A stretch of 64,000 nt of DNA from an uncultured Bacteroidales bacterium (GTDB lineage Bacteria; Bacteroidota; Bacteroidia; Bacteroidales; FEN-979): contig CAIWTA010000046.1 in the NCBI GenBank assembly GCA_903915465.1, positions 1,364 to 65,363 on the forward strand. The letters run 5' to 3'. The notes under the pieces were generated by a model. It was not told the origin of the DNA. It did not search any database and was given only the letters and a program-made list of their open reading frames with translations. The translations under genes and the position numbers were made by a program. Below are positions 34,156-62,389 of this stretch, one piece after another. How positions within the stretch are numbered: the stretch's first letter is position 1; each line of letters opens with the position of its first letter.

Positions 34156-36504
34156 ATGAAAGGAAAAATACTGATTATCCTGATCTGCATTTTGTGTTCA
34201 TTTTCTGCCGGAGCAACCGGAAATTCTGTGATCAATATTGTTCCAAAACCTGCAAAAATGAAAATTTTTCAGGGGAATTGTGAACTCAGGGAGAAGATGG
34301 AAATATGTTATCAATCGACTAATCCTGAGCTAGCGCAGATTGCCAGGTTTTTTACTGATCGTGTCCTTCTTGCAGGAGGTCCTTCATTAAATATCACCAG
34401 TCAACCCAACGAATCCAAAAAGAAACCGGAGATCTTTATAACCATAAAGGTCGGACAGCTTCCAGCAGAAGGTTACAAACTGGTTGTGAAAAGCAACAGT
34501 ATTCTGATCACCGGTGGTAGTGAAGCAGGTGTTTTTTATGGCATACAGACGTTGTTACAACTTTTACCAGCAGAAGTGTTTGGAAAAGGAACCAGTAAGT
34601 CAAATATAAGGTGGATCGTTCCTTGTGTCGAAATTAAAGATCAACCGCGATATTCCTACCGGGGTATGCATCTTGATGTTTCCCGTCATTTTTTCCCCAA
34701 AGAATTTATCAAAAGATACATAGACCTGATGTCGATGTATAAAATGAATACTTTTCACTGGCATCTGACGGATGATAACGGATGGAGAATTGAAATTAAG
34801 AAATATCCGAAACTCACGCAGATCGGGGCCTGGCATGTAGACCGTGAAAATCTGCCATGGAAAGAGCGCCCGCCGCAACAAACCGGTGAAAAAGCAACAT
34901 ATGGCGGTTATTATACACAGGATGAAATCAGGGAAATTGTTGTTTATGCAAAAGAACGATTTGTTACTGTGATTCCTGAAATAGAAATGCCGGCTCATTC
35001 GCTGGAAGTGCTGGCCGCCTACCCGCAATTGTCGTGTACCGGAGGACCATTCACCGTGCCTCCCGGCAGCTACTGGCCAAACAATGATATTTTATGTGCA
35101 GGAAATGATTCAACTTTCACTTTTATTCAGGATGTCTTGTCTGAAGTGATCGCCCTCTTTCCTTCGGAATATATTCATATCGGCGGTGATGAAGCAGACA
35201 AAGCGCAATGGAAATTGTGTCCCAAATGCCAATTGAGGATAAAGAACGAAGGTCTGAAAGATGAAAAGGAATTACAAAGTTATTTTATTAAGAGAATTGA
35301 GAAATTCCTGATCTCGAAAAACCGGAAGATGATCGGGTGGGATGAAATTCTCGAAGGTGGCCTGGCACCTGAAGCTACCGTTATGTCTTGGCGAGGGGTA
35401 GAAGGAGGAATTTCAGCTGCAAAGCAAGGTCATGATGTGATTATGACACCAACAACATTTTGTTATTTCGACTATTACCAGGCAAATCCCAAAACAGAAC
35501 CAAAGGCAATCGGTGGAATGCTGACCCTGAAAAAAGTCTATTCATTTGAACCAACACCGCGGGAATTGACCCATGATCAGGCAAAACATATTTTGGGTGC
35601 ACAAGGAAATCTGTGGGCTGAATACATCCCTACCGAAGCACATGCCGAATATATGGCAATTCCCAGGATGCTTGCCCTGGCAGAAGTTGTATGGTCCCCA
35701 AAAATACAGAGAAACTGGCAAGATTTCCGTTCACGGATCACAGCTCAGTTCAGAAAACTCGACCAGATGCATGTCAATTATTGCAAAGGATCTTTTAAGG
35801 TTGATGTCAGCACATATTTTGACAAAAAGCTCAATTCGCTTCAATGCAAACTCGAATCTGAACAACCGGATTGGCCGATAGTCTACACACTTGATGGAAA
35901 TAATCCTGTGTCTAAATCTCCGGTTTATTCACAACCCTTCGAGATAAATAAAAATTGTTACATCAAAGCGGGAATATTTCGAGATAGTAATGCGGAAGAT
36001 TCATTTACCGAACGCACCATTCTTAATCATCATGCCATTGGAAAGAGAACCAATTACCTTCAGCCATACAGTTACAGGTACACAGGAGGTGGTGATGGCG
36101 CCCTTACAGATGGTCTTCGCGGTTCTTCCGATCATCGCGATGGAGGCTGGCAGGGATTTTTAGGAAATGATATGGAAGTTGTGATTGACCTGGGGAAAGT
36201 GGAACCTGTCAGGTCGGTTGCCATTACTTTTTTGCAGAATAATGCCAGTTGGATCTTTTTACCTGATTCTGTGATCTTTTCCTTATCTCCAAATGGCAAG
36301 AGATTTCATTCCATCAACGAAGTTGGAAATTCGATAACCAAAAAAACCGACCGGCCGATCATCCAGGAATTCTCTCAGATTTTCCCTGATACTCCGGCAA
36401 GGTATATAAAAGTTCGCGCTAAGAATGCAGGTGTTTGTCCATCCTGGCATGAAGGCGCCGGGGAATCCTGCTGGGTGTTTGCAGATGAGATAGTGGTGTA
36501 TTGA
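34156..36504 (+). CDS. GH20 beta-N-acetylhexosaminidase with C-terminal Fn3-like and F5/8-type domains
   Basis: RGMHLDVSRHF, HWHLTDD.GWR, HIGGDE catalytic motif, signal peptide. Confidence 0.95.
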   Translation: MKGKILIILICILCSFSAGATGNSVINIVPKPAKMKIFQGNCELREKMEICYQSTNPELAQIARFFTDRVLLAGGPSLNITSQPNESKKKPEIFITIKVGQLPAEGYKLVVKSNSILITGGSEAGVFYGIQTLLQLLPAEVFGKGTSKSNIRWIVPCVEIKDQPRYSYRGMHLDVSRHFFPKEFIKRYIDLMSMYKMNTFHWHLTDDNGWRIEIKKYPKLTQIGAWHVDRENLPWKERPPQQTGEKATYGGYYTQDEIREIVVYAKERFVTVIPEIEMPAHSLEVLAAYPQLSCTGGPFTVPPGSYWPNNDILCAGNDSTFTFIQDVLSEVIALFPSEYIHIGGDEADKAQWKLCPKCQLRIKNEGLKDEKELQSYFIKRIEKFLISKNRKMIGWDEILEGGLAPEATVMSWRGVEGGISAAKQGHDVIMTPTTFCYFDYYQANPKTEPKAIGGMLTLKKVYSFEPTPRELTHDQAKHILGAQGNLWAEYIPTEAHAEYMAIPRMLALAEVVWSPKIQRNWQDFRSRITAQFRKLDQMHVNYCKGSFKVDVSTYFDKKLNSLQCKLESEQPDWPIVYTLDGNNPVSKSPVYSQPFEINKNCYIKAGIFRDSNAEDSFTERTILNHHAIGKRTNYLQPYSYRYTGGGDGALTDGLRGSSDHRDGGWQGFLGNDMEVVIDLGKVEPVRSVAITFLQNNASWIFLPDSVIFSLSPNGKRFHSINEVGNSITKKTDRPIIQEFSQIFPDTPARYIKVRAKNAGVCPSWHEGAGESCWVFADEIVVY

Positions 36505-44336: not shown

Positions 44337-45047
44337 TCAGGGTTTCGGTAAACCGGGTTTTTCTCCTGAATAAATGCTTGAAATACCGAATGTAAGGGGA
44401 ATATACGAAGTATTTTTCATTCCGCTTTTTTCCATAATTATTAAAAAATCCTTCCCTGAAGGAAATGTTGCAACTGATTCAGGCAGATAAGAATAGGCTG
44501 TAGTATTTTTCGAAATGACTTTTCCCGCAAAAGGAATAATAAACCGGCTATAGAATTCATAAATTTGCTTAAATGGCATCGATCCGGGATGCGAAAATTC
44601 AAGAATTTGCATGATACCACCTGGTTTTAAAACACGTTTCATTTCGGATAAACCTTTTTCGAGGTTTTCGAAGTTTCTTACGCCATAGGCAACTGTTACA
44701 GCATCGAAGAATTCATCAGGAAAAGGAATAGTTTCGGCATCTCCGGATTCAAAAAAGACTTGATCAGTAAGCTTTTTCTTTACAATTTTCTTTCTCCCGA
44801 TATCCAGCATCTGGTTGGCAATATCAATGCCGATGATCTTTTCAGGAGATAATGCCACCATTGCAATGGCCAGATCGCCAGTGCCTGTTGCTACATCAAG
44901 GATCAAACGGGGTTTTTTTTCTGCCAAAACGGTAACGAATTGTTTCCTCCACCAGTGATCGATCCCGAAGGATAGAAAATGATTGAGAAAATCATATCGG
45001 CCGGAGATTTCGTTAAACATGGTACGGACTGATTCTTTTTCTGCCAT
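44337..45047 (-). CDS. menG: Demethylmenaquinone methyltransferase (UbiE/MenG)
   Basis: YDFLNHFLSFGID..WR, LDVATGTGDLA, GVRNF, RVLKPGG, YLPESV. Confidence 0.95.
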   Translation of the reverse strand: MAEKESVRTMFNEISGRYDFLNHFLSFGIDHWWRKQFVTVLAEKKPRLILDVATGTGDLAIAMVALSPEKIIGIDIANQMLDIGRKKIVKKKLTDQVFFESGDAETIPFPDEFFDAVTVAYGVRNFENLEKGLSEMKRVLKPGGIMQILEFSHPGSMPFKQIYEFYSRFIIPFAGKVISKNTTAYSYLPESVATFPSGKDFLIIMEKSGMKNTSYIPLTFGISSIYSGEKPGLPKP

Positions 45048-45119
45048 AATGGTTCTTATGTTTAATCAATGATCGTTCTCAAGTAGGACGGGCCTTTTCA
45101 CTACAACGCAGCAATGCCT

Positions 45120-45149
45120 GTAGCTGGCGCGCGTTTGTAACGCGTGCCA
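45120..45149 (+). repeat. GTAG-led REP-like palindrome
   Basis: GTAG-C-TGGCGCGCGTT-tgt-AACGCGTGCCA, 11-bp stem with one G.T. Confidence 0.6.
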
Positions 45150-45192
45150 TGATATTCATCTATTCCTTTATTAGTTTCTTCTAAATAATTTT

Positions 45193-45310
45193 TGCGCTCA
45201 AGCCGCGCCGCTTCATCACCACAACGCAGCTGCGCCTTCTTCTATCTCACTTCGTTCGATTTCCGGCTTCACCGGAACCGAAGAAGCCAAGGCTGCTAAT
45301 GTGGTGACTG
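45193..45310. repeat. Structured dispersed repeat, copy A (~118 bp)
   Basis: Aligns end to end with 62085-62203; most substitutions in the inner stems are compensatory. Confidence 0.88.
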
Positions 45311-45329
45311 ATAATCAAATCTCAAGAAT

Positions 45330-45364
45330 AAAAAAAGGATCACCTGTTATTTCAGGCAATCCTT
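45330..45364 (-). terminator. Rho-independent terminator of the rplM-rpsI-rpsB-tsf operon
   Basis: Minus strand AAGGATTGCCTG-aaataa-CAGGTGATCCTT followed by a T run, 20 nt after the tsf stop. Confidence 0.8.
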
Positions 45365-45384
45365 CTTCTTATAATAGAATTGGG

Positions 45385-46221
45385 TTATGCTCCCAGCATG
45401 AGCCTGATAAATCCTGTAACAGTAAGGTCTTTATCATTTTCAGAAAGGAATTGACGAACAGTCTTTTTAGAATCTTTAATATAATCCTGATTGAGCAGCG
45501 TATTGTCTTTGAAAAATTTGTTTAGTTTCCCGATTGCTATCTTTTCAAGCATTTCTTCAGGTTTTCCTTCTTCCCGGGCTTGTTCTTTACCGATTTCGAC
45601 TTCACGGTCAATGATTTCCTGAGAAACATTTTCTTTATCCACTGCAATAGGGCTCATGGCTGCAATCTGCATGGCCAATTCATGCCCTATTTCCATTAAA
45701 TTCTTAACATCTTTTTTATTCAGGCCAAGAATAGTGGCAAGGCGGTTTCCATGATGGTTATATGCTGCAACAGCAGGCCCTTCAATGAATTCGTAATGTG
45801 CGATTTGAATTTTTTCACCGGTCTTTCCCAACATTTCGTTGAGTTTTTCCTCCACTGACAAACCCGGAAGGCGCAATGAACTTAGTTCTTCAATAGTTTT
45901 AGGTTTATTTTTAACTCCCAGGTCAATGATATCCTTGGCAAACTGAATAAATTCATCCGTTTTACCTACGAAGTCCGTTTCGCAGTTGAGCATGAGGATT
46001 GCGGCATAGGTATGGTCGGCATTTGTTTTGGCGATTACATAACCATGGTTTGCTTCACGATCGGCCCGTTTGGCAGCGACTTTCTGCCCTTTTTTACGCA
46101 GGTAGTCAATGGCTTCTTCAAAATCACCGTTTGTTTCCTGTAGTGCTTTCTTGCAATCCATCATTCCGGCGCCAGACATTTGTCGTAGCTTGTTAACGTC
46201 AGCAGCAGTTATATTGGTCAT
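45385..46221 (-). CDS. tsf: Elongation factor Ts
   Basis: LRQMSGAGMMDCKKAL, NCETDFV. Confidence 0.98.
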   Translation of the reverse strand: MTNITAADVNKLRQMSGAGMMDCKKALQETNGDFEEAIDYLRKKGQKVAAKRADREANHGYVIAKTNADHTYAAILMLNCETDFVGKTDEFIQFAKDIIDLGVKNKPKTIEELSSLRLPGLSVEEKLNEMLGKTGEKIQIAHYEFIEGPAVAAYNHHGNRLATILGLNKKDVKNLMEIGHELAMQIAAMSPIAVDKENVSQEIIDREVEIGKEQAREEGKPEEMLEKIAIGKLNKFFKDNTLLNQDYIKDSKKTVRQFLSENDKDLTVTGFIRLMLGA

Positions 46222-46254
46222 CTTAAATTACTAATTATGAATTAAAATTATGAA

Positions 46255-47190
46255 TTATTTCTTTGTGGATTTGCCAACTGGTTTGCTGATTCTTTTTCGC
46301 GGCGCTTTTGCCTTTTCTGCTTCCTGCTCTTCGAGGGTTTTCAGTTTGGTGACTTTCGAATCCACGAAATCTTTTTTCGTTACTTTCAGCCCATCTTCTT
46401 CCTCCTCAGCATCTAATGCGGCAATAGATCTCAAACCTGATTCTTCTTCGCCTTCAATACGGTCTTCGTGATCTTCTTCAGCTGATTTCTTATCGCGATC
46501 AAGTTTTCTTTCCATGAGTCCTTCTTCGATTGCCTTAACCATTGCATCAACAATAAGAGCGATGGATTTGGAGGCATCATCATTAGCGGGAATAGGGAAA
46601 TCAACTTGTCTGGGGTCAGAATTGGTATCAACAATTGCGAAGGTAGGAATATTCAATTTTTTTGCTTCAGCAACAGCAATGTGTTCTTTCAGGATGTCGA
46701 CGATAAAGATGGCAGCGGGCAGACGGTTAAGGTCGGCGATGCTACCAAGGTTCTTTTCAAGTTTTGCGCGCTCACGAGTGATCGTAAGTCTTTCCTTTTT
46801 TGATAAATTATTATACGAAGGACTTGAAATAAGTTTATCGATGGAGGCCATTTTACGGACTGCTTTGCGGATTGTGGCAAAGTTGGTCAGCATACCGCCC
46901 GGCCAGCGTTCGGTAACGTATGGCATATTCACGCGCTTGACGAGTTCGGCAACAATTTCTTTCGCTTGCTTTTTGGTAGCAACAAATAAAATACGTTTAC
47001 CGGATTTTGAGATCTGTTTCAGTGCGGAAGCTGCTTCATCAATCTTAGCCATTGTTTTATAAAGATCGATGATATGAATCCCATTGCGCTCCATAAAAAT
47101 GTAGGGAGCCATGTTGGGGTTCCATTTTCTTCTCAGGTGGCCAAAATGCACACCTGCATCCAATAAATTATCAAAAGTGGTTCTTGACAT
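46255..47190 (-). CDS. rpsB: 30S ribosomal protein S2
   Basis: AGVHFGH, RWPGGMLTN, DTNSDP, PANDD; charged C-terminal extension. Confidence 0.98.
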   Translation of the reverse strand: MSRTTFDNLLDAGVHFGHLRRKWNPNMAPYIFMERNGIHIIDLYKTMAKIDEAASALKQISKSGKRILFVATKKQAKEIVAELVKRVNMPYVTERWPGGMLTNFATIRKAVRKMASIDKLISSPSYNNLSKKERLTITRERAKLEKNLGSIADLNRLPAAIFIVDILKEHIAVAEAKKLNIPTFAIVDTNSDPRQVDFPIPANDDASKSIALIVDAMVKAIEEGLMERKLDRDKKSAEEDHEDRIEGEEESGLRSIAALDAEEEEDGLKVTKKDFVDSKVTKLKTLEEQEAEKAKAPRKRISKPVGKSTKK

Positions 47191-47214
47191 AATGTATGTG
47201 ATGTAAAAAAACTA

Positions 47215-47601
47215 TTAACGTTTACTAAACTGGAATCTTTTCCTTGCTTTTTTCTGGCCGAATTTCTTGCGTTCTACCATACGGGGATCTCTTCGCATCA
47301 ATCCTTTTGCTTTCAGTGCCGGACGATGTTCTTCACTGATTTTGCAAAGGGCGCGGGAAATTGCATGACTCAAAGCTTCAGCCTGGCCGGTGATACCACC
47401 GCCATCAAGGTTCACTTTAACATCATATTTCCCTATGTTGTTGGTTACCTGAAAAGGTTCAATAACCTGATATTGTAGGATAGCAGTGGGAAAATAGTTT
47501 TTGTAATCGCGGTCGTTGACCGTGATGGTTCCCTGACCTTCCTTTACATAAATTCTCGCTACGGCAGTCTTTCTTCTGCCAAGGGCCATAATGACTTCCA
47601 T
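47215..47601 (-). CDS. rpsI: 30S ribosomal protein S9
   Basis: GRRKTAVAR, GGGITGQ, ERKKFGQKKARKRFQFSKR. Confidence 0.98.
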   Translation of the reverse strand: MEVIMALGRRKTAVARIYVKEGQGTITVNDRDYKNYFPTAILQYQVIEPFQVTNNIGKYDVKVNLDGGGITGQAEALSHAISRALCKISEEHRPALKAKGLMRRDPRMVERKKFGQKKARKRFQFSKR

Positions 47602-47602
47602 A

Positions 47603-48058
47603 TTATTTAATTGAATTTAGGTTAATCGTTTTGGGTTGCTGTGCCTGATGCGGGTGTTCTGGCCCGGCATAAACATAAAGATTACGGAACAGCTCACGGC
47701 CTAACCGGTTCTTTGGAAGCATCCCTCTGATGGCCTTCTCAACCACGGAAATAGGTTTCTTGGCTAACAATTCTTTGGGCGTTGCAAAACGCTGCCCTCC
47801 TGGATAACCAGTGTGCCGGACATATACCTTATCATCCATTTTTTTTCCGGTGAGGATTATCTTCTCAGCATTGATGATGATCACATTATCACCGCAATCA
47901 ACATGAGGTGTATAATTGACCTTCAGCTTGCCTCTCAATAATCGCGCGGCTTTGGTGGAAAGCCTGCCAAGAACCTGATTTTCTGCATCAATAAGCACCC
48001 ATTCCTTGGTCACCGTTGCCTGGTTTGCGCTTATTGTTTTGTAACTTAATGTATTCAT
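47603..48058 (-). CDS. rplM: 50S ribosomal protein L13
   Basis: LGRL, YTPHVDCGD, HTGYPGG, GMLPKN. Confidence 0.98.
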   Translation of the reverse strand: MNTLSYKTISANQATVTKEWVLIDAENQVLGRLSTKAARLLRGKLKVNYTPHVDCGDNVIIINAEKIILTGKKMDDKVYVRHTGYPGGQRFATPKELLAKKPISVVEKAIRGMLPKNRLGRELFRNLYVYAGPEHPHQAQQPKTINLNSIK

Positions 48059-48102
48059 GAATTCGGACTGGTTTCTAATTCATTATTTTTTTAAAAGGAG
48101 TG

Positions 48103-48134
48103 CAAAGATATATTTTGTTTTTTGATCTGACAAG
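48103..48134 (-). promoter_or_regulatory. Bacteroidota sigma-70 promoter of rplM operon
   Basis: Minus strand TTG (-33) about 20 nt before TATCTTTG (-7). Confidence 0.7.
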
Positions 48135-48240
48135 CAATTCCATGAATAACTTATCAATTATTTTAGTTATCCCTTATTGTGTTACATTATTTAGTACTTT
48201 TATACTTGATTATGACGTAAGTTAGTGAATTAAAATAAAA

Positions 48241-48331
48241 AAGGGTTCCCGCTGAGTTTCGCAGATAGTATTAGTATTTGAAAATCAGCGTGAATCTGCG
48301 CTTAACTCTGCGAAAATCTGCGTGAACCCTT
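48241..48331. repeat. 25-bp imperfect inverted repeat with internal ATCTGCG units
   Basis: 48241-48265 vs 48307-48331, 3 mismatches; AAAATCWGCGTGAA occurs twice. Confidence 0.8.
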
Positions 48332-48356
48332 GAAATCTTTCGGTTAATATCACTGT

Positions 48357-49706
48357 ATGGATAGACAGATCTCAAAAAAGCTGGAAGACTGGGAATCAAC
48401 AAAAGAAAGGAAAGTCTTGCTTTTTCAAGGTGCCCGGCAATCCGGTAAAACCCATTGTATCAATGATTTTGCCAAAAGATTTGATCAATACCTCTATTTC
48501 GATCTTTCAAACCAAAAAGACTGGCAGATTTTCAAAAACAAATCATCATTTGCAGATCTTCTGCAGGCAATGTTTTCCATCAGGGAAAAACAAAGAAATG
48601 GTTTGCGGAGCCTGATCTTCCTGGATAATATTTCAGATTCTCCTTCGGCTATGAACTGGCTGCCATCATTTCACAAAGAAGCAAACGATCTTTTTGTGAT
48701 CGCATCGTCATCAAGGGATCTGAAATCAATTTATAAAGAAGAAAAAGATTCTGATTCCGGTATAGAGTCTCTACTAATTTATCCTTATAATTTCAGCGAA
48801 TTCCTGGCTGTTCTGGGCGAAGACTCATCCCGCAATGCTTTCAATGAAGTTCCATTCCCGAATAACTCTTTTGATAAACTGATCCGATTTTTTCATCTCT
48901 ACACACTGATCGGCGGAATGCCAGAAGTTGTGGAAAATTATTCAAAAGACCGGGAACTGGCAGACCTGCAGCCAATTTATGAAAAAATCATGAGCCTGTT
49001 CCAGGAAGAGTCAGATACTATTTCTCCGTCAAAGAAAAGCAGGGAACTCAACCGGGATACTTTTCAAAACGCCTTTCCTTATGCCTCGATGCGAATCAGT
49101 TTCCACCATTTCGGGAATACATCGTCACGAAGCCGTGAAACAGGCAGGTCATTCCGCACGCTGGAAGAGTTGCTTCTCCTGAACCTGGTCTATCCGTGCA
49201 CATCAACAATAATGCCAACCCATCCCGACAAAAAGAAATCTCCCCGGTTGCAGTTGATTGATACCGGACTCGTCAACTACTCAACCGGCATCCAGAAACA
49301 GATCTTTGAGGTTAACGACCTGCTTTCAATCTTCGACGGACAAATTGCCCGTCATGTGGTTGGACAGGAGATCCTTGCAGTGGGAAACGGGGATGCAACC
49401 GGGCTTCATTTCTGGGTTCGCGACAAAGCACAATCAACTGCTGAAGTCGATTTTATTATTCTCTATGAAGATTTAATAATTCCCGTGGTTTTGAAATCCG
49501 GTGAACCGGGAAGATTGCGTTCGCTTCATCAATTCATGGACGCTGCACCACATCCTTTTGCAGTAAGGCTTTGGGCACATCAGCTTTCCATCCAGCAAGC
49601 AAAAACAATAAAAGGAAAGAAATTCTTCCTGATAAGTCTGCCGTATTTCCTGGCGGGTAGGATTGCGGAGCATCTGGAGGGGTTTATAAGGCTGGTGAAG
49701 AGTTAA
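48357..49706 (+). CDS. AAA_14 + DUF4143 ATP-binding protein (degenerate motifs)
   Basis: GARQSGKT, IGGMPEVV, DTGL, FW.R...AEVDF, KSG..G.LRSLHQF. Confidence 0.88.
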   Translation: MDRQISKKLEDWESTKERKVLLFQGARQSGKTHCINDFAKRFDQYLYFDLSNQKDWQIFKNKSSFADLLQAMFSIREKQRNGLRSLIFLDNISDSPSAMNWLPSFHKEANDLFVIASSSRDLKSIYKEEKDSDSGIESLLIYPYNFSEFLAVLGEDSSRNAFNEVPFPNNSFDKLIRFFHLYTLIGGMPEVVENYSKDRELADLQPIYEKIMSLFQEESDTISPSKKSRELNRDTFQNAFPYASMRISFHHFGNTSSRSRETGRSFRTLEELLLLNLVYPCTSTIMPTHPDKKKSPRLQLIDTGLVNYSTGIQKQIFEVNDLLSIFDGQIARHVVGQEILAVGNGDATGLHFWVRDKAQSTAEVDFIILYEDLIIPVVLKSGEPGRLRSLHQFMDAAPHPFAVRLWAHQLSIQQAKTIKGKKFFLISLPYFLAGRIAEHLEGFIRLVKS

Positions 49707-49854
49707 GGCAAAAGGTAAGGTTATACTTTTGGCTATTTTGGATCTGTCTTGCCATTTTAGATTTACCATTTTACATCTTACGTACGGTCAGGGTAAAAAC
49801 ACATTGATGTGTATATTTCATGCAAGCTTCCTCATTCAATCAAAAGTATACTGC

Positions 49855-51507
49855 ATGAAACGTCTACCGCTCCCAAGCTTTACAGTGATTTGCACAGCTT
49901 TTTTCATATTAATATTCTGCTCTGCCGCTGCTCAGTTTTTCACTGAAATATTAGGCCGACCAACGGATTCCTCAATTTCTATAAACTTCCTGGCTGATCA
50001 GAACACAGATGTATATTGGGAATACGGCACTTCTCCGGGATCTTATAGTCTTTCCACGACTCAGTTTGCCGTTGAGAAGGATTCAGCGATTGAAGTTGAT
50101 TTCACAAACCTTCTTCCCGATACAAAATATTTTTACAGAACACGGTACAGGGCTGGCGGCAGCTCAACCTCATTCCTTTCAGGCACGGAACATCATTTCA
50201 ATACACAGCGGGCATCCGGAAGTACTTTCACATTTACAATTGAAGCAGATGAGCATCTGTATGATAAAAAAGGGGTCTGCAGCTTACACCAGGTATGTAT
50301 TGCAAACCAGGCAACGGATGATCCGGATTTCATGCTCACCCTGGGTGACATTTTCGGAGACGATCATCATCCTTATGACATCACAGCTTCCGAAATGGAT
50401 TCCTTGCACAAATTTTACCGGCCCTATCTCGGCAGTATCTGTCATTCGGTTCCTCTCTTCATCTGCCTCGGAAATCATGAAGGAGAAAAAGATTTTTACC
50501 TGCATCAGACTCCCCCTGAAAATATCGCAGTCTATGCAACACTTTCCAGGAAGTCATATTATCCGAATCCATCTCCGAATAACTTCTATAGCGGCAATCC
50601 TGACACAGAGCTCTTTGGAATGGGAAATCCGGAAAATTACTACGCATGGACATGGGGAAATGCCTTGTTTGTTGTGTTGGATGTTTACAGATATGACTCT
50701 GATACTTCCGCTAAACCAACAAACTGGGAATGGACGCTGGGTTTTCCTCAATATACATGGCTGAAAAACACGCTGGAATTGAGCGATGCACAGTACAAAT
50801 TTGTTTTTGCACATCATACGCGGGGAGAAGGAAGAGGCGGGATCACGACTGCCAGGTATTTTGAATGGGGCGGTTATGAAGCAAATGGCACTACATGGGG
50901 ATTCTCCGCCAACCGCCCGGGATGGGTCAAACCCATTCATCAGTTATTTGTTGATAACGGGGTCAATATTTTCTTCCAGGGACATGACCATCTTTTTGCT
51001 CATGAAGTTTTGGATGGTGTTGTTTACCAGGAAGTTCCGATGCCAAGTGATTCCACCTACGAAATCGGGATGCTGGCAAATGCGGGTGCCTATGTTTCCG
51101 ACACAATAGGTGGTTCCGGACATTTGAAGGTCACGGTTTCTCCGTCGTGTGTCCAGGTAGATTTCATCAGGGCCTATCTGCCGGCTGATACATTGAACGG
51201 AAATCATCACAATCGTGAGGTTGCATTCAGTTATACAATCGGGACATGTCCCTCTCAGGGAATCGATGATCAGATTGAAACCCCAATAGTTAACGTTTTT
51301 CCAAATCCGGTAACAGATAAAATAACAATAAGTTTATCAGAAGATATTAAACACTTTCAAATCAGTTTGATCAATACTTTAGGCCAAGTCCTTCTGCAAA
51401 CACAATCAAAAACTGTTGATGTGGGTAGGATTCAGAATGGGATTTATTTTTTACATGTCAGAGCAGCTAATTTTGATGTGAAAAAAAAGCTGATTATTTA
51501 TCGGTAA
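49855..51507 (+). CDS. Secreted metallophosphoesterase (purple acid phosphatase-like) with T9SS type A CTD
   Basis: ADEH, LGDIF, GNHE, AHH, GHDH metal ligands; N-terminal Fn3-like part; VFPNP...KKLII end; start chosen at MKRL. Confidence 0.87.
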   Translation: MKRLPLPSFTVICTAFFILIFCSAAAQFFTEILGRPTDSSISINFLADQNTDVYWEYGTSPGSYSLSTTQFAVEKDSAIEVDFTNLLPDTKYFYRTRYRAGGSSTSFLSGTEHHFNTQRASGSTFTFTIEADEHLYDKKGVCSLHQVCIANQATDDPDFMLTLGDIFGDDHHPYDITASEMDSLHKFYRPYLGSICHSVPLFICLGNHEGEKDFYLHQTPPENIAVYATLSRKSYYPNPSPNNFYSGNPDTELFGMGNPENYYAWTWGNALFVVLDVYRYDSDTSAKPTNWEWTLGFPQYTWLKNTLELSDAQYKFVFAHHTRGEGRGGITTARYFEWGGYEANGTTWGFSANRPGWVKPIHQLFVDNGVNIFFQGHDHLFAHEVLDGVVYQEVPMPSDSTYEIGMLANAGAYVSDTIGGSGHLKVTVSPSCVQVDFIRAYLPADTLNGNHHNREVAFSYTIGTCPSQGIDDQIETPIVNVFPNPVTDKITISLSEDIKHFQISLINTLGQVLLQTQSKTVDVGRIQNGIYFLHVRAANFDVKKKLIIYR

Positions 51508-51596
51508 ATTTTAATGTCCAACTGAATCTTTTGTGGCGTAATACCCATCTTCATCTGAGAAATTCGTCTGACTACACAGAGTAACTAATCTGATAC

Positions 51597-52160
51597 ATGG
51601 AAGATGCAGCATTAATTGGGAAGTTAAAAACTGGCGACAAAACCGGTTTTACTGAATTGATGCATCTCTATTCCGGCAGGGTGATCAACACCTGCTACAA
51701 ATTCTTACTGGATAAAGAAGATGCAGAAGATCTTTCACAGGAAGTTTTCATTGAAGTGTTTCAGTCCATCCGTTCATTTCGCGGGGATGCAAAATTGTCT
51801 ACCTGGATTTACCGAATCGCAGTATCAAAAAGCCTGGATGAAATAAAAAGACGGAAGCGACAAAAACGCATCACATCCATTGGGAAAATATTACATCTCG
51901 ATGAAGTTGCTCAATGGATTGCAGGAGGTGTAATGCCAGATAAATTGATGGGAGAAAAGGAAAACATGAGGGAAATCATGGAGGCTTTAAATAAACTTCC
52001 TGATAGTCAGCGGGTGGCATTTACATTGAGCAAAATTGATGGATATACCAACAAGGAAATTGCAGAAATCATGAAATCCACAACCGATGCTGTTGAATCG
52101 CTTGTATTTCGTGCAAAGAAGAAGATGACACGGGAGCTTGAAATAATTCTGAAAAAATAA
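51597..52160 (+). CDS. ECF-type RNA polymerase sigma factor
   Basis: DAEDLSQEVF, STWIYRIA, LP..QR.AF.L, EIAEIM, VESL.FRAKK. Confidence 0.95.
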   Translation: MEDAALIGKLKTGDKTGFTELMHLYSGRVINTCYKFLLDKEDAEDLSQEVFIEVFQSIRSFRGDAKLSTWIYRIAVSKSLDEIKRRKRQKRITSIGKILHLDEVAQWIAGGVMPDKLMGEKENMREIMEALNKLPDSQRVAFTLSKIDGYTNKEIAEIMKSTTDAVESLVFRAKKKMTRELEIILKK

Positions 52161-52207
52161 TCGTAAAAAAGTGCCGGCATAGAAGTTTTTTATCGTCAAA
52201 TAAAACA

Positions 52208-52519
52208 ATGATGAAAGATTCAGCATCACATAGCAAAGCAGAACAAGCACTCCGGACGTTTGAATCGCTCGGGAATATTCAGCCATCCGCTGGCTGGGAC
52301 CAGTCGCTGATGATAAAACTTTCATCTGCAAAGCCCTCTTCAAATTCAAGATCATTAATCACAGGTTATACCTTGATCCTTCTGTTTTTTGTGCTCATGA
52401 ACATTGGATTCTTTCTGGGAGCAGTGATTCATGATTCGCATAAAAGTATTTACCGGAACAATGAACTCCAGATAATTTCAAATGAGCTATTGATTAATCC
52501 GACTTCTTTAAACAATTGA
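52208..52519 (+). CDS. Small single-TM protein, putative anti-sigma factor
   Basis: Directly after ECF sigma; soluble N-terminus and one TM helix. Confidence 0.6.
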   Translation: MMKDSASHSKAEQALRTFESLGNIQPSAGWDQSLMIKLSSAKPSSNSRSLITGYTLILLFFVLMNIGFFLGAVIHDSHKSIYRNNELQIISNELLINPTSLNN

Positions 52520-52522
52520 CCC

Positions 52523-53014
52523 ATGGACATTTTCAAGCAGAAAAAAAATTTGGTTCTCATCATCATTGTCCTCTCTTTGCTGAATTTATTTATGATTGGT
52601 GCTTTTATGCTGAAGGATTTTTTCCATAAACCGCCACCGCCTTTGCATTCGCAGGATCAACATGAAGTATCCAATATTTTGCAGAAGGATTTGGGCTTAA
52701 CAGAAAAACAGGCTGAACAGATAGATAAGCTGCGGTCTGATTTTTTCGAAAAAGAGCAATTTTTATCCGCTCAGATAAGCGCCGGAAGGGATTCAATGAA
52801 TATGGCAATGTTTAATAAAATCACAGATGAAGATCTGGTCAAGTCTTTGGCAAAAAAAATTGCCGACAATGAATACAGGATGGAGTTATTACGATTTGAG
52901 CAGGCAAAACAATTCAAATTAATCTGCACACCTGAACAGATGGATAAATTTGAAGGGTTGGTCAAAGAAGTTCGCGACTATTTCAAACCCGAAAATCAAC
53001 CAAAACGAAAATGA
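52523..53014 (+). CDS. Spy/CpxP/ZraP-like periplasmic heavy-metal sensor family protein
   Basis: N-terminal TM with LLN, LGLTEKQ and CTPEQ (LTxxQ) motifs, helical. Confidence 0.85.
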   Translation: MDIFKQKKNLVLIIIVLSLLNLFMIGAFMLKDFFHKPPPPLHSQDQHEVSNILQKDLGLTEKQAEQIDKLRSDFFEKEQFLSAQISAGRDSMNMAMFNKITDEDLVKSLAKKIADNEYRMELLRFEQAKQFKLICTPEQMDKFEGLVKEVRDYFKPENQPKRK

Positions 53015-53071
53015 TTTTTTCCTATTCTCATCAAAAAATAAAAATGTGTTAACCCAACTTAGACTTTACTT

Positions 53072-54865
53072 ATGAAAAAAATTCTTTTCCTTGCAGGTTT
53101 TTTCCTTTTTGCAATTTCCTCTTTTGCCCAGGAATGTTTCATGGTATCCACTGAAACCAGGTATTGGGACAATGCAGGAACCTATTCCGGGTATACCTTA
53201 TTCGGAACCCGCGGAACATCTTACTTAATAGATTTTGAGGGATATGTAATCCACACCTGGAACATTGGTACGAACCCGCGCTTTACAGAAGGGGGAACAC
53301 TACTTGATGCAGTTGGCGGCAACCCAAGCAATCAGAATGTGTGGAAAGAGCTTGACTGGGCCGGCAATGCATTATGGCAATATTCCGAAACCCGCTCAAA
53401 TTATCATGGGCACCATGATTTTGCCAAGATATACAATCCCAAACTCGGAGACTCAACTTTCATCTACATTGCGAATAAAGACCTTACCGCACAACAATGT
53501 CTTGATGCCGGATGCGACCCTTCACACAATTACACCGGAGCCCAGATGGATGCGATCGTAGAAGTTGATATGCAGGGAAATGTCGTTTGGGAATGGTGCT
53601 TCTTTGACCATGTAGTTCAGGATATAGACCCAACTAAACCCACTTATGGGGTCATTGCAGATACTCCCGGCAGGATTGACCTGAATTTGCGGGGCAATCC
53701 GGTAAAAAGTGATTGGATGCACTGCAATTCCCTTGATTATAACCAGACTCTCGATTTAATGGTCGTTAATTCGGTTCATGGCGAATTTTATGTGATTGAT
53801 CATGGAAACACATTTGTTCCTAACAATCCGGTTAGCAGTATTGCACTTGCTGCCAGTAGCCTGGGTGACTTTCAATATCGTTTCGGCGATCCTGCTAAAT
53901 ACGACCAGGGCGATCCTCCTTCGGTACTGGATAACTGGGAGAAAGCAACAGCAGGAAATAAGCAACTTGGAGGTTCTCATGATATCCAATGGATAAAGAC
54001 AGGATTGCCCGGTGAGGGGAATTTTCTGGTTTTTAACAATGCAGAAAACCTTTTTGAACTTACACCGCAGTCATACATAATAGAAATAAACCCCTTTTTA
54101 AACGCTGTAGGAGTAAATACGGGCAATTTCGTCAATCCTCCAGATGCCGGTTACAACATTGTAAACTCTCCTGATGCCAATCTTATGAAGGAAAAGAAAA
54201 ATATTTCAAAACAGGTTGTCTGGAGATATTCCAGTAAAAATAACACCTCCTTCTACAGTACTATCGGCTCAAGTGCTCAGCGATTACCCAATGGGAATAC
54301 CCTGGTTTGTTCCATGAATGATGGACATTTCTTTGAAGTAGCACCCACTGACACCGCCATTGTCTGGGAATATATCAATCCAATGACCCGTGATGGAATA
54401 AAGAAAATAAAAGTGGATAATTATCCTACTTATAACGGTGTCTTCAGAGCGTACAGGTACGCAGCCGATCATCCTGCGCTTGTTGGTCATGACCTGACTC
54501 CTGGTCCCACAATGACCGGAGCAACGCCAAATTACTGGACCCCGGGAGACATCACTGCCGTTAAGAATGAGGAACATCGGGTTATCCAAGACGATGTTCT
54601 TGACCAGAACTATCCAAACCCGTTTACCTATTCAACTACCATAGAATTCGAAATTGCTGAATCCAAACAGGTAAGTGTCGTGATCTATGATTTTTCCGGA
54701 AATCATGTTAAATCATTGCTGAATACAAGATATCCAAAGGGGAAATATTCCCTGACCTGGGACGGTACCAATGACAATTCCCAGCACGTGGCAAGCGGTA
54801 TGTATTTTTATATTCTGATGGCTGACAATCACACTTTGAGTAAGAAAATGATCTATTGCAGGTAG
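53072..54865 (+). CDS. Arylsulfotransferase (ASST)-like beta-propeller with T9SS type A CTD
   Basis: GYTLF, HHDF, DWMHCNS, SHDIQW, AQRLPNGNTL; QNYPNPF...WDG...KKMI. Confidence 0.85.
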   Translation: MKKILFLAGFFLFAISSFAQECFMVSTETRYWDNAGTYSGYTLFGTRGTSYLIDFEGYVIHTWNIGTNPRFTEGGTLLDAVGGNPSNQNVWKELDWAGNALWQYSETRSNYHGHHDFAKIYNPKLGDSTFIYIANKDLTAQQCLDAGCDPSHNYTGAQMDAIVEVDMQGNVVWEWCFFDHVVQDIDPTKPTYGVIADTPGRIDLNLRGNPVKSDWMHCNSLDYNQTLDLMVVNSVHGEFYVIDHGNTFVPNNPVSSIALAASSLGDFQYRFGDPAKYDQGDPPSVLDNWEKATAGNKQLGGSHDIQWIKTGLPGEGNFLVFNNAENLFELTPQSYIIEINPFLNAVGVNTGNFVNPPDAGYNIVNSPDANLMKEKKNISKQVVWRYSSKNNTSFYSTIGSSAQRLPNGNTLVCSMNDGHFFEVAPTDTAIVWEYINPMTRDGIKKIKVDNYPTYNGVFRAYRYAADHPALVGHDLTPGPTMTGATPNYWTPGDITAVKNEEHRVIQDDVLDQNYPNPFTYSTTIEFEIAESKQVSVVIYDFSGNHVKSLLNTRYPKGKYSLTWDGTNDNSQHVASGMYFYILMADNHTLSKKMIYCR

Positions 54866-54889
54866 TCCTAACCCATAACTCATTATACC

Positions 54890-57800
54890 ATGAAAACAAT
54901 TATCCTCATCTTGATTTTTGGATTGCTTGCAGAACTTTCCATTTCACAAGAAATGCCCGTAAACAAAGTATCCGATTCCGGGAAAACCCAAACAAAATTA
55001 TCTATAAAAGCCGGCCAGTCGCTGACCTTTCAAACCATCAATGAATCCCTGATTCCAAAGGGAGATTATGTGATGGGAGACCATTTCGGTTTTGTCGATC
55101 CAAATCATCCCAGTGATGAGACGCCCATCCATACGGTGTCGATCGATTCATTTTACATGGCCAAGAACCTGACCACCAACCAGCAATTCCTTCTCTTCCT
55201 GAACTCGATGCTGGCTGCCGGTTCCATCCATGTGCAGAACAACCGGGTTTACATGACCGGTGATACCAATACGCTCTGTTATACATATCAGTATGCCTAC
55301 TATTACAGCATCGGCTATAACGGGACCTCTTTCAGCATTGCCGATTTCAGAGCGAATCACCCGGTTGTTGGTGTGATGTGGTACGGCGCAGCGCTATACT
55401 GCAACTGGCTGAGCCAGCAGAACGCGTTGCAGAGCTGTTACAACACCCAGACCTGGATCTGCGATTTCATAAAGACCGGATACCGGCTTCCCACGGAGGC
55501 CGAATGGGAATATGCGGGACGGGGCGGACATACGAACCCTTACTACAACTATCCGAACGGAAATTCAATCGACGTAACAGAGACAAACCTGCCGGATTCG
55601 GGAGATCCTTACGAAACCGGCGCCTATCCATTGACAACACCAGTAGGGTTTTATGATGGAATGTTGAAATATAAATCTGACTACAACTGGCCAGGAAGTA
55701 TGACAAGCTACCAGACATCAGCCGGTGTCAATGGTTTTGGCCTTTATGATATGGAAGGAAATGTGTGGCAATTTGTCAACGACTGGTACAGCCAGAACTA
55801 TTACAGTGTAAGTTCAACAGATAATCCGACAGGTCCTTCAACAGGAAGCACCATGCCCGATGGCAAATCATACAGGGGTATGCGCGGAGGAAACTGGTAT
55901 AATGGCGATGTTATCAGTGGTGTAAATGACGGACATTCGCGGATTTCAAACCGCAATCCCTCCTACTATCGCGGACCGCAGGATCCGTATCATCCGTGGT
56001 ACCATGTAGGTTTCCGGGTCGCCAGAGGGTTTACAAGCACTTCTCCCGGTACAACCAATACTGTCGGCCTGTTCCTGAATGATACCATAAATGCTTGTGC
56101 CGGTTATACTTTATTTGCGCCCAAGCACAACACTATGACTTACCTGATCAATAATGAGGGAAGAAAAGTTCATCAGTGGACGGCAAGTACCTACAATCCG
56201 GGACAATCTGTTTACCTTCTGGAGAACGGCAATCTGCTCAGGACATGTCAGGTTATGGGACAGCTCGGTTCAGGAGGCGGTGAAGGCGGCAGGCTCGAAG
56301 AATATAACTGGAACGACAGCCTGGTCTGGCAGTTTAACTATTCCACTGCCAACTACACGCAGCACCATGATGTGAAACGTCTGGCAAACGGGAATATCAT
56401 TATGCTGGTAGTGGAGAAAAAACTATATGCAGATTTGATTGCAGCAGGATTTAATCCGAGTAACTTCCAACCGGATATCCAGCAAAAAGGATACATGCTT
56501 CCCGATTATGTGGTAGAGATACACCCGACACCACCGCTTGGGGGAACCATTGTGTGGGAATGGCATGTTTGGGATCACTTAATACAGGATTATGATGCCA
56601 CAAAATCAAATTACGGGGTCGTCAATGCTCACCCTGAACTGATTGATTGTGATGGTGACCGCCGGAAACTTCCATTATTCTGGAACCACATGAATTGCAT
56701 TGATTATAATCCGGTACTTGACCAGATTGTTTTAAGTGTGAGAGGGAACAGCGAATTGTGGGTAGTGGATCACAGCACTACAACAGCACAATCTGCATCT
56801 CATAGTGGCGGCGCGCACGGCAAAGGCGGCGACCTTCTTTACCGATGGGGAAATCCTCTGACATATGGCGCCGGAAACGTAAGCAATGAAAAATATTTTG
56901 AACAACACGATGTGGAATGGGTCAAACCTGGTTGTCCGGGGGCAGGTAACTTAACCTGTTTTAATAATGGTGTCGGCCGGAATTACTCCACTATTGATGA
57001 GATCACTCCACCGGTTGATGCGAATGGCAACTATACACTGGCTTCAGGATCTGCATTTGGCCCAACTGCTCTTTCATGGACCTATCAGGCAACTCCTCCA
57101 TCATCCCTTTTTGCTCATGATATATCCGGAGCACAGCGTTTACAAAACGGGAATACCTTGATTGATGACGGACCTACAGGAACATTTATTGAAGTCACAT
57201 CAGCCGGAGCTGTTGTATGGAAGTATATCAACCCCACCACAAATTCCGGGCCTGTCACCCAAGGTGACACTTTACCACATGATCCTACCCATCCGGAAGA
57301 AACAATGAATTCTGTGTTCAGGGTTTACAGATATGCTCCAAGTTATCCGGCATTTAGTGGGAAAGATATGACGCCAGGTGATTTTATCGAACTTTACCCG
57401 TCAAAAACAGTAAATATGACAATCCTGCTTGAAGGACTCTATGCAGGAAATGGGACAATGAACCAGGCGCAAGATGCTATCGGACCTCACTGGACAAGCC
57501 CAATTGTGGATAAAATTACAGTCGAATTGCACAGCGGGTCAAATTATGCAAACATCCTTTATAGTACTTCGAATGTCTCTTTAAATGCAGATGGAACAGC
57601 TTCTTTTACTTTACCATCATACTATTCAGGGAATTATTATGTGACGATTAAGAACCGTAACCATATCCTGACTTCAACCGCGCTGCCGGTATCTTTTGGG
57701 TCTTCGGCAGTCAGCTATAAATTTGATGCCCCGGCGAAATCATACGGGCCCAATATGTTACTGATGGGAGACGGTGCCTATGCATTCTACGGAGGCGATG

Positions 57801-57976
57801 TAAACCAGGATGGACTTGTGGATGGAGGAGATTTATCTGACATCGCTAATCTTTCCACATTAGCTGCCAGCGGGTATCTGCCGGAAGATGTAAATGGGGA
57901 TGGGCTGATTGATGGTTCCGACTTGTCTGCTGCCGGCAACAATGCTGATATTGCTATTGGAGCACTTACTCCATAA
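54890..57976 (+). CDS. Secreted fusion: FGE/SUMF1-like domain + ASST-like domain + dockerin/EF-hand-like C-terminus
   Basis: RLPTEAEWEYA, NGFGLYDMEGNVW, GFRVAR; HHDV, HMNCID, QHD; GDVNQDGLVD/DVNGDGLID. Confidence 0.87.
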   Translation: MKTIILILIFGLLAELSISQEMPVNKVSDSGKTQTKLSIKAGQSLTFQTINESLIPKGDYVMGDHFGFVDPNHPSDETPIHTVSIDSFYMAKNLTTNQQFLLFLNSMLAAGSIHVQNNRVYMTGDTNTLCYTYQYAYYYSIGYNGTSFSIADFRANHPVVGVMWYGAALYCNWLSQQNALQSCYNTQTWICDFIKTGYRLPTEAEWEYAGRGGHTNPYYNYPNGNSIDVTETNLPDSGDPYETGAYPLTTPVGFYDGMLKYKSDYNWPGSMTSYQTSAGVNGFGLYDMEGNVWQFVNDWYSQNYYSVSSTDNPTGPSTGSTMPDGKSYRGMRGGNWYNGDVISGVNDGHSRISNRNPSYYRGPQDPYHPWYHVGFRVARGFTSTSPGTTNTVGLFLNDTINACAGYTLFAPKHNTMTYLINNEGRKVHQWTASTYNPGQSVYLLENGNLLRTCQVMGQLGSGGGEGGRLEEYNWNDSLVWQFNYSTANYTQHHDVKRLANGNIIMLVVEKKLYADLIAAGFNPSNFQPDIQQKGYMLPDYVVEIHPTPPLGGTIVWEWHVWDHLIQDYDATKSNYGVVNAHPELIDCDGDRRKLPLFWNHMNCIDYNPVLDQIVLSVRGNSELWVVDHSTTTAQSASHSGGAHGKGGDLLYRWGNPLTYGAGNVSNEKYFEQHDVEWVKPGCPGAGNLTCFNNGVGRNYSTIDEITPPVDANGNYTLASGSAFGPTALSWTYQATPPSSLFAHDISGAQRLQNGNTLIDDGPTGTFIEVTSAGAVVWKYINPTTNSGPVTQGDTLPHDPTHPEETMNSVFRVYRYAPSYPAFSGKDMTPGDFIELYPSKTVNMTILLEGLYAGNGTMNQAQDAIGPHWTSPIVDKITVELHSGSNYANILYSTSNVSLNADGTASFTLPSYYSGNYYVTIKNRNHILTSTALPVSFGSSAVSYKFDAPAKSYGPNMLLMGDGAYAFYGGDVNQDGLVDGGDLSDIANLSTLAASGYLPEDVNGDGLIDGSDLSAAGNNADIAIGALTP

Positions 57977-58064
57977 AATAATTATTGAAACCCTGCTTCT
58001 TGAATTATCAAAAAATTATTGACCAAGATGTAAATTTGGAAAAATATACTTTTAACATTTATCC

Positions 58065-59726: not shown

Positions 59727-59743
59727 ATTTAACCGGAACCTTT

Positions 59744-62008: not shown

Positions 62009-62084
62009 CATTATCTGCGAAACAACTATATAACTAATTGGAAAAGATTAATAACCAAGCATCTACAATTCTTCTATTTACACA

Positions 62085-62246
62085 TGCGCTCAGGCCGCGC
62101 GGGCCTCGTCACCCCAACGCAGCTGCGCCCAGTGCTATCTCACTTCGTTCGATTCACGCCTTCGGCGTGACCGCACTGGTCAAGGCTGCTTATGTGGTGA
62201 CTGGTATTTTCTTTCGTTCTTTCTTTTGGTGGAAGCAAAAGAAAGT
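62085..62246. repeat. Structured dispersed repeat, copy B (62085-62203) plus terminal hairpin CTTTCTTTTG/CAAAAGAAAG
   Basis: Homologous to 45193-45310 with covarying stems. Confidence 0.88.
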
Positions 62247-62389
62247 ACAATTGACCAAAAAGTTATTATTCTTGATGTTCCTCTATTTTTCTATAGGTGG
62301 GCCACTCTGGGAGAAACTAAATACCGATTATATACCAACAATCTAGCATCAGGAAGAAAGTCAATAATTGTAACTAAACAGAGGATCTT

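Follow-up and report, generated by a model that had tools for sequence, protein, structure and literature searches.

A dispersed, covarying ~127-nt repeat associated with transposons in environmental Bacteroidales

The window analysed here is a 64,000-nt stretch of contig C46 in the genome of an uncultured Bacteroidales bacterium (G000; 4.07 Mb in 329 contigs). It contains two copies of a non-coding structured repeat, copy A between tsf and ubiE (gene identities from Pfam) and copy B between two further genes. An earlier note on this DNA had described them as a dispersed element of ~118 bp. Using a covariance model of the element (R1, built in the plus sense; plus and minus denote the strands of the window as in that note), which served to place copies and to scan other genomes, we found both copies where the note had put them and with the same fold, the R1 placement, a pairwise alignment and single-sequence folds being in agreement (Table 1). 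The core helices had been drawn correctly, but the true extent of the element is ~127 nt, about 10 nt more than reported, and what had been taken for a dispersed pair is a dispersed family of ~100 copies. In copy A the minus strand coincides with the sense strand of both neighbours, tsf and ubiE, whereas the genes flanking copy B lie on the plus strand, so that its orientation relative to its neighbours is opposite to that of copy A.

Copy A consists of the P0 hairpins, followed by P1, P2 and P3 and a three-way junction bearing P4 and P5. In the pairwise alignment of the two copies, P1 is TCACCACA/TGTGGTGA, with a single C.T mismatch in copy B, and P2 is GCAGC/GCTGC. P3 reads CTTCTTC/GAAGAAG in copy A and CCAGTGC/GCACTGG in copy B (four compensated pairs), and P4 reads TTCCGG/CCGGAA and TCACGC/GCGTGA, respectively (three), which gives the seven compensatory changes that had been claimed. 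P5 is the same in both copies and, on the minus strand, has tandem G.A pairs and a GAA loop; in the largest subfamily it is a perfect Watson-Crick helix, ATCTCAC-TTC-GTGAGAT. Copy B belongs to a CCAGYGC/GCRCTGG subfamily also represented on contigs C76, C242, C246 and C137. Upstream of P1 in the plus sense lies an additional 5' domain that the earlier note had missed, comprising the hairpins GCSC-N7-GSGC and AGGCC-N4/5-GGCCT, which exclude each other. Covariation is seen in both, the first occurring in the compensated variants GCCC/GGGC, GCGC/GCGC, GTCC/GGAC and TCGC/GCGA, and the second also as AAGCC/GGCTT. We also considered whether the two P0 hairpins together form an H-type pseudoknot and rejected this, by our own reasoning, as sterically doubtful, its third loop being only 0-1 nt long; the hairpins are treated as alternatives.

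Table 1. Positions of the two copies and of associated features in the window
Feature	Position	Strand	Evidence or remark
Copy A of the element	45189..45314	favoured folding strand (-); R1 match on +	R1 133.2 bits
Copy B of the element	62081..62207	favoured folding strand (-); R1 match on +	R1 131.3 bits
REP-like GC-rich hairpin GTAG CTGGCGCGCG TTTGTAA CGCGTGCC	45123..45150	+	38 nt left of copy A; REP family of ~54 loci
Degenerate 5'-arm fragment of the element (P0 to P2)	45077..45117	+	left of the REP; local alignment
tsf intrinsic terminator AAGGATTGCC...GGTGATCCTTTTTTT (minus strand)	45328..45371	-	intergenic comparison, 10 same-genus genomes
Composite insertion of ~345 nt containing copy B	62019..62364	+	left module, element, right hairpin module
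Hairpin module TTCTTTCGTTCTTTCTTTTGG...CAAAAGAAAGTACAA right of copy B	62209..62256	+	same as internal hairpin of TIR-bounded MITEs

Searching G000 with blastn returned 92 high-scoring segment pairs, and an nhmmer profile gave 108 matches on 87 of the 329 contigs. At least 110 model positions are covered in 61 of these matches, and 42 of them have a contig end no more than 150 nt away. In a set of 47 distinct copies from this genome, 90.3% of the cells are paired, as compared with 86.4±0.2 in shuffles, and 20 of 43 pairs show double-sided changes, as compared with 8.3±2.1 after column shuffling (none of 500 shuffles reached 20) and 7-9 when the pairing partners were slid. Across genomes (31 rows from 14 genomes), double-sided changes occur in 31 of 39 pairs versus 15.9±1.9 in shuffles and 6-12 with slid partners, and they affect seven of the eight pairs of P1, four of the five of P2 and all seven of P3. 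The basal helices, the internal loops UGCGC and CCAAG and the unpaired junction nucleotides are strongly conserved or conserved, and the distal stems are replaced from genome to genome by different but paired stems. These cell counts overstate the number of independent events, because the cross-genome alignment was guided by, and hence fitted to, the model, and because many of the changes were inherited by whole subfamilies. By these sequence comparisons, then, the helices are maintained by compensatory change both within and across genomes, and the earlier description of a dispersed MITE/REP-like structured repeat (MITE stands for miniature inverted-repeat transposable element and REP for repetitive extragenic palindrome) is borne out by copy number and covariation alike.

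A preference for the minus strand had also been proposed, and three kinds of evidence favour it: wobble pairing, fold stability and, in the carrier insertion sequences (IS) discussed below, the sense of the transposase gene. G.U-compatible cells number 56 on the minus versus 23 on the plus strand among the copies of G000, and 38 versus 21 across genomes; where the minus strand has G.U, G.A or U.U, the plus strand would have C.A, C.U or A.A. Single-sequence folding recovered P1-P5 on both strands of both copies (z-scores between -2.2 and -5.4), and the minus strand was the more stable throughout. As RNA, copy A folds at -51.6 (minus) versus -44.3 kcal/mol (plus) and copy B at -53.4 versus -52.2 kcal/mol; as DNA, the values are -30.7 versus -25.6 and -32.6 versus -26.5 kcal/mol, respectively, with z-scores of -3.8 and -5.4 for the minus strands of the two copies.

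In the host genome the element is often associated with a 13-nt terminal inverted repeat (TIR), GAGACTGTTTAAA, which lies 24-27 nt upstream of the element in 33 of the 73 copies that include its 5' part. Allowing up to two mismatches, the TIR has 239 matches in G000, and 23 inverted pairs are less than 1.5 kb apart; ten of these pairs, 197-560 bp in size, enclose the element. Identical 3-nt flanks (TAA or TTA) were found in 12 of the 23 pairs; both flanks are TWA in 16 pairs, 12 of which have identical flanks versus ~8 expected by chance. Like MITEs, the element itself is small, non-coding, present in many copies and variable in its presence between relatives. The same TIR bounds many unrelated MITE families (for example at C58:6375-6622, C81:6178-6381 and C292:4961-5428), some of them filled with TTTACGATT-type minisatellites, which recall the BrickBuilt elements of Porphyromonas gingivalis, and several are nested end to end. 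In one 197-bp copy (C177:48-244), the entire P2-P5 body is cleanly missing between two CTG repeats, a palindrome- or microhomology-mediated deletion. No homologue of the transposase described in the next paragraph was detected in G000 by tblastn, PF13751 gave no matches, and the TIR was not found within 2.5 kb of the six PF01609 transposase genes. These negatives apply to the assembly, in whose 329 contigs repeats are often unassembled; absence of a cognate transposase from the genome is not proven. Six congeners searched for the same transposase yielded a single match with 28% identity.

Such a transposase accompanies the element in relatives. In G013, a complete genome from another genus of the same family, six identical repeats of 1855 bp, each with unique flanks, contain the element, which therefore moves as cargo within an IS. 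This IS has 16-bp inverted ends, GAGGCTGTCTCAAAAG and its complement, which enclose the element. Its transposase matches the IS1182-family model NF033551 of NCBIfam at 384 bits and the Pfam families DUF772, DDE_Tnp_1_6 and DDE_Tnp_1; with values of 378 and 375 bits, two further element-bearing IS also lie well above the NF033551 cut-off of 270. The order of parts is transposase stop codon, ~40 nt, the element as the reverse complement of its plus form in the window, an A-run, and the terminal hairpin with the TIR. When 58 loci encoding relatives of the G013 transposase were searched with R1, the element was found 29-46 nt after the stop codon in five (L192, L205, L230, L199 and L212), and in each of them the transposase gene reads in the same sense as the minus strand. 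Lying in this sense between the stop codon and the right terminal hairpin, the fold would fall in the 3' untranslated region (UTR) of the transposase transcript. The remaining R1 matches were one locus with the element upstream of the gene (L214) and one weak match. When 39 rows were placed on a transposase tree, four of the five carriers grouped in a six-member clade (support 100/100), whose two remaining members lack a 3' flank that could be tested. The transposases of element-bearing IS are 62-100% identical to each other. All IS tails are 110-202 nt long, and among 27 that were folded, the four with the element have free energies of -66.9 to -87.4 kcal/mol. A by-eye comparison of four IS found the loop CCUUGG constant while the TIR varies, and showed neither complementarity of the loop to target or ends nor loop/TIR covariation. 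Likewise by eye, the other end of the MITEs and the left end of the G013 IS showed no similarity beyond the TIR.

The IS1182-family elements of the Bacteroidota (L186:1222-3076 as well as L199, L205, L230 and others) lie between an A-run and a T-run and have a hairpin at each end; the right end is followed by TT or TTT in most of the 32 relatives for which it was found. There is no target duplication at the IS ends. Members of the IS1182 family are reported to target stem-loops, and one of them, IS1272, to replace the target inverted repeat without leaving a duplication (PMC5678879, in the part available), and by analogy the layout in Bacteroidota looks as if the stem-loop of an intrinsic terminator had been replaced.

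In the copies without the TIR, the element is combined in mosaic fashion with a REP, a long palindromic module and other repeats. A group of eight copies, including B, has a different left module in common, others are preceded by tandem CAACTCATCAA repeats, and the subfamilies have shuffled sets of right-hand modules, which points to recombination between the copies; a comparable modularity is known from BOX repeats. The long imperfect palindromic module (CCGCC..GAAATTCATG..AAAATCGAGGA.., arms of ~60 nt) is highly repeated and often situated at contig ends (C257:12857-12946, C120:52323-52501, C205:9031-9231; in the congener G001, L038:1677-1878), and in both G000 and G001 it occurs ~55 nt downstream of the element. 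The REP, 21 nt long with the sequence GCGCGCGTTTGTAACGCGTGC, constitutes a separate family with 58 matches at ~54 loci in a regular-expression scan, often in tandem arrays (for instance C93:23745-24485, C2:27851-28031, C246:241-435, C124:19846-19954 and window 45123-45150). It lies within 80 nt upstream of the element in nine of the 73 copies, copy A included, and in some copies (C246, C235) REPs are inserted in the P5 or P3 region.

The earlier note had suggested looking for co-located genes for a REP-associated tyrosine transposase (RAYT) or an IS200-type enzyme, that is, members of the HUH class. G000 has six matches to Y1_Tnp, the corresponding domain, on five contigs; four of these contigs lack the element according to blastn, and the fifth has a partial copy ~24 kb away, so that the proposed link was not upheld. 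On C93, a 192-aa RAYT-like open reading frame (ORF) lies between two inverted GCGCGCGTTTGTAACGCGTGC REPs in the classic REPtron layout, and on C144 another REP, CCGTGGGTTTCAGCCCACGG, borders a second RAYT-like gene (a 196-aa ORF) at 35815-35834 and 36382-36404, with several other repeat families just downstream of the gene. The RAYT-like genes are thus flanked by short REPs of their own and not by the element. The enzymes tied to it are of the DDE type, through the IS1182-family IS of relatives and the TIR-bounded MITEs with TWA flanks in G000.

Beyond G000 the distribution is narrow. Of 41 related genomes searched by DNA, eight have matches, G000 included, with six of the 12 congeners and a single genome from another genus among them; in a sample of 151 genomes from the order, R1 matched four. 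With an exact pattern for the 5' arm, 37 stretches were retrieved from 18 metagenome-assembled genomes, 14 of which are labelled Bacteroidales, Bacteroidetes, Bacteroidota or Porphyromonadaceae, the other four being otherwise labelled and possibly mis-binned. Free-standing copies dominate in the other genomes; no synteny of these copies is conserved across them, and only another repeat module is common to their surroundings.

Comparison with congeners identifies the two copies in the window as insertions. In G011, G006, G005 and G003 the tsf terminator lies ~20-25 nt from the start of ubiE, whereas in G000 ~280 nt of repeats, copy A among them, intervene, and copy A is absent from the orthologous site in all 10 congeners compared. 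The spacer between the tsf terminator and ubiE (window 45048-45327) is a hot spot, with different repeats, such as a AATCGTAAATCG-type tandem, in G001, G002, G007, G009 and G012. The degenerate fragment to the left of the REP aligns to the element with a score of 43 (shuffles 17.0±2.9, maximum 27), and the order fragment, REP, full copy recurs on contigs C312 and C246. Similarly, the gene pair around copy B is 25 nt apart in G011 and G010 versus 381 nt in G000. The left module of the composite insertion is common to at least seven other copies, and the hairpin module on its right is matched in the MITE copies of C72, C264, C32, C120 and C242 and also on C322, C76 and C242. No TIR was found within 80 nt upstream of either copy, no 16-mer match with up to three mismatches was present nearby on the contig, and no target duplication was evident. 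Relative to the congeners, copies A and B are thus TIR-less mosaic insertions. Contigs assembled from four DNA runs over window 44400-62900 break at the repeats or have chimeric joints derived from other copies, and none bridges an empty site. A paralogous copy of the gene pair around copy B (61301-63100) lies ~6 kb upstream, at ~55631-56701; the two are 79% identical over the start of an arylsulfotransferase-like gene and 72% identical over the end of the gene before it.

Comparison with Rfam 15, as proposed in the earlier note, gave no match at gathering thresholds anywhere in the window, and around copy A only chance-level matches (E of at least 0.79). In a literature search, neither the element nor a structured domain within IS1182 tails was found described, subscription-only journals and ISfinder lying outside the scope of that search. 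The element is a new family within the known class of structured, MITE- or REP-like selfish repeats. Like bcr1, ERIC, NEMIS/Correia, RUP and BOX, it is a dispersed intergenic non-coding repeat of 100-160 nt with tens to a hundred copies. A close parallel is bcr1 of the Bacillus cereus group, which is described as transcribed, as having a multi-stem fold kept by compensatory changes, and as being distributed differently in related genomes (PMC3184786, in the part available). It differs from repeats of this type in sequence, fold and host, and it has no Rfam match; its structured part is not formed by the TIRs but is an internal cassette, present also in complete IS and without any TIR.

Resemblances to mobile elements are equally partial. 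The carrier IS belong with the IS1182 family, of which IS1272 is a member, by their match to NF033551, and their 16-bp hairpin ends, the lack of a duplication and the A-run/T-run flanks fit the stem-loop-replacing insertion described for IS1272 (PMC5678879, as far as the available text goes), but they have a five-helix domain in the 3' non-coding tail that most folded tails lack, and no such transposase was found in G000. The TIR begins with GAGAC, as does that of BrickBuilt/ISPg1 of P. gingivalis, GAGACCTTTGCA(AAA) (PMC4596501, in its available portion), and the IS5-family MITEs of that group (BrickBuilt, MITE-PgRS) likewise have modular interiors, some with minisatellites, and comprise several families on one TIR. 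In contrast, the TIR sequence as a whole is different here, the flanks are TWA, no partner transposase was found, and the P. gingivalis elements lack the structured cassette according to their description in the accessible part of PMC4596501. Mosaic intergenic clusters of palindromic units are typical of REPs and bacterial interspersed mosaic elements (BIMEs), and G000 has a true REP family with a RAYT-like gene, a REP adjoining copy A. REPs, however, are described as single hairpins of 20-40 bp tagged GTAG or CGTC (PMC3733652, in the part available), whereas the element is 127 nt long, has five helices and flanks no Y1 transposase gene. A reading as a CGTC-tagged REP, considered because CGTC precedes P1, was rejected on size and architecture. 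The IS110 bridge RNA and omega RNA, finally, also derive from structured, covarying non-coding regions at the end of an IS and beside its recombinase gene (for the bridge RNA, PMC11208160, in the part available), but here a DDE transposase takes the place of the DEDD recombinase or TnpB/IscB, and most relatives dispense with the element.

The identity of the element as a transposon-borne structured module is, in our judgement, very probable. Taken as a whole, the observations are best explained, somewhat less firmly, by a self-contained structured cassette of ~127 nt in the mobile DNA of a narrow group of environmental Bacteroidales. Amplification in G000 would have occurred mainly as MITE cargo mobilised in trans by a DDE transposase, and later reshuffling would reflect recombination between copies, nesting and palindrome-driven deletion. 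What the fold does is a more tentative matter. By analogy with the hairpins of REP, ERIC, Correia and bcr1, it may act in a minus-strand transcript, as an RNA structure that protects or ends a 3'-UTR or intergenic transcript to the benefit of the carrier transposons. We regard this as a serious possibility, though hardly an even bet. An RNA role is favoured because the minus strand is in the sense of the transposase, tolerates G.U, G.A and U.U, and folds more stably.

Several observations weigh against this interpretation. Many MITE families share the TIR without having the element, and 23 of the 27 folded IS tails lack it, being AT-rich and folding at only -18.2 to -35.9 kcal/mol; the element is therefore dispensable for transposition. 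The TIR and TWA flanks of the MITEs differ from the GAGGCTGTCTCAAAAG hairpin ends of the IS, which show no duplication, and the partner of the MITEs may therefore be an IS5-like transposase and not one of the IS1182 family. Since L230 falls outside the clade of carriers, at least two gains or losses are required on the transposase tree, and the element may be a capture by the IS and not ancestral to them. Copies in other genomes stand free, with no TIR beside them and no obvious duplication. Counted by pairs, the cross-genome wobble bias is weak (16 versus 15), and mismatches occur in the largest subfamily, two of them in P3 and one in P1. The opposite senses in which copies A and B face their neighbours speak against a consistent cis-regulatory role, which was rejected; in a crude ORF map, flanking genes were arranged opposite/opposite in 10 cases, opposite/same in 10, same/opposite in seven and same/same in three.

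Four other explanations were weighed. The covariation might have arisen free of selection, by quasi-palindrome mutation through intrastrand template switching combined with the division of the selfish copies into subfamilies. Correction of quasi-palindromes by template switching is a well-established source of mutation, many of the double changes were inherited by whole subfamilies, the youngest and largest subfamily tolerates its mismatches in P1 and P3, and the loss of P2-P5 from the MITE on C177 testifies to palindrome instability. The architecture nevertheless persists across 14 genomes and in IS with transposases as little as 62% identical, nearly all pairs of P1-P3 have double-sided changes, distal stems are exchanged for other paired stems, and template switching does not explain the conservation of unpaired junction nucleotides, so we consider this account improbable. 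To a similar degree we doubt that the element is a DNA cruciform or hairpin serving as an insertion-adjacent site for structure-seeking transposons and REPs and sometimes captured through an alternative end. This would explain why it lies just inside the ends of different transposons, and the targeting of stem-loops by the IS1182 family (PMC5678879, in the part available), the A-run/T-run setting expected after replacement of a terminator stem-loop, the occurrence in two kinds of transposon with at least two gains or losses, the REPs that interrupt the element at its hairpins and the prevalence of free-standing copies elsewhere all fit. The single spacer in all 33 TIR-linked copies, however, indicates one capture followed by amplification and not repeated targeting, the six identical copies in G013 with unique flanks are cargo, and tolerance of G.U, G.A and U.U on one strand favours a single-strand fold over a symmetric cruciform.

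More remote still is the proposal of the earlier note that the minus strand folds as single-stranded DNA and is cut and pasted in trans by a RAYT or IS200-type enzyme. In DNA, tandem G.A pairs and mini-hairpin loops of the CGAAG type are stable, the minus-strand DNA folds have the marked z-scores given above, Y1_Tnp genes are present, true REPs adjoin or invade several copies, and free-standing copies have neither TIR nor obvious duplication; but the Y1_Tnp genes and the element occupy largely separate contigs, the RAYT-like genes have REPs of their own, the element far exceeds REPs of 20-40 bp (PMC3733652, in the part available), and every visible signature of mobilisation is of the DDE type, be it TIRs with TWA or residence in an IS1182-family IS. 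It is just as doubtful that the element encodes an IS-end non-coding RNA (ncRNA) which, by analogy with the IS110 bridge RNA or IS605 omega RNA, would regulate or guide the transposase, genomic copies being orphan RNA genes. Its position 3' of a recombinase gene, in gene sense and beside the element end, does resemble that of omega RNA; conserved basal helices and internal loops with variable but paired distal stems are typical of protein-bound RNAs; and the two mutually exclusive 5' hairpins suggest a conformational switch. However, the element is missing from most IS relatives and from most of the MITE families that share the TIR, the loop CCUUGG stays constant while the TIR varies, and neither a promoter nor a terminator is apparent: inspection by eye found no consistent match to a Bacteroidetes-type promoter (TAnnTTTG) at the conserved TTTG of the 5' edge and no consistent terminator after P1. 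DDE transposases are not known to be guided by RNA. A more elaborate model, to which we give as little credence, would make the cassette a functional RNA domain at the right end of one lineage of IS1182-family IS, with the two exclusive 5' hairpins as a switch and a conserved internal loop as the binding site for the transposase or a host factor; it would control transposase expression, cis-preference or the choice of ends, with genomic copies acting as decoys or regulators.

In this family, a multi-helix fold with good support travels as the cargo of DDE transposons of two kinds. Because so many copies lie at contig ends, the repeat accounts for many of the breaks in the metagenome assembly of G000, and its covariance model can be used to mask or annotate, in environmental Bacteroidales, a repeat that might otherwise be mistaken for a novel ncRNA or riboswitch. 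Should the fold prove to have an RNA function for the IS, it would offer a tractable case of a transposon 3'-UTR element; should it have none, it would be a clear example of strong covariation arising in selfish repeats.

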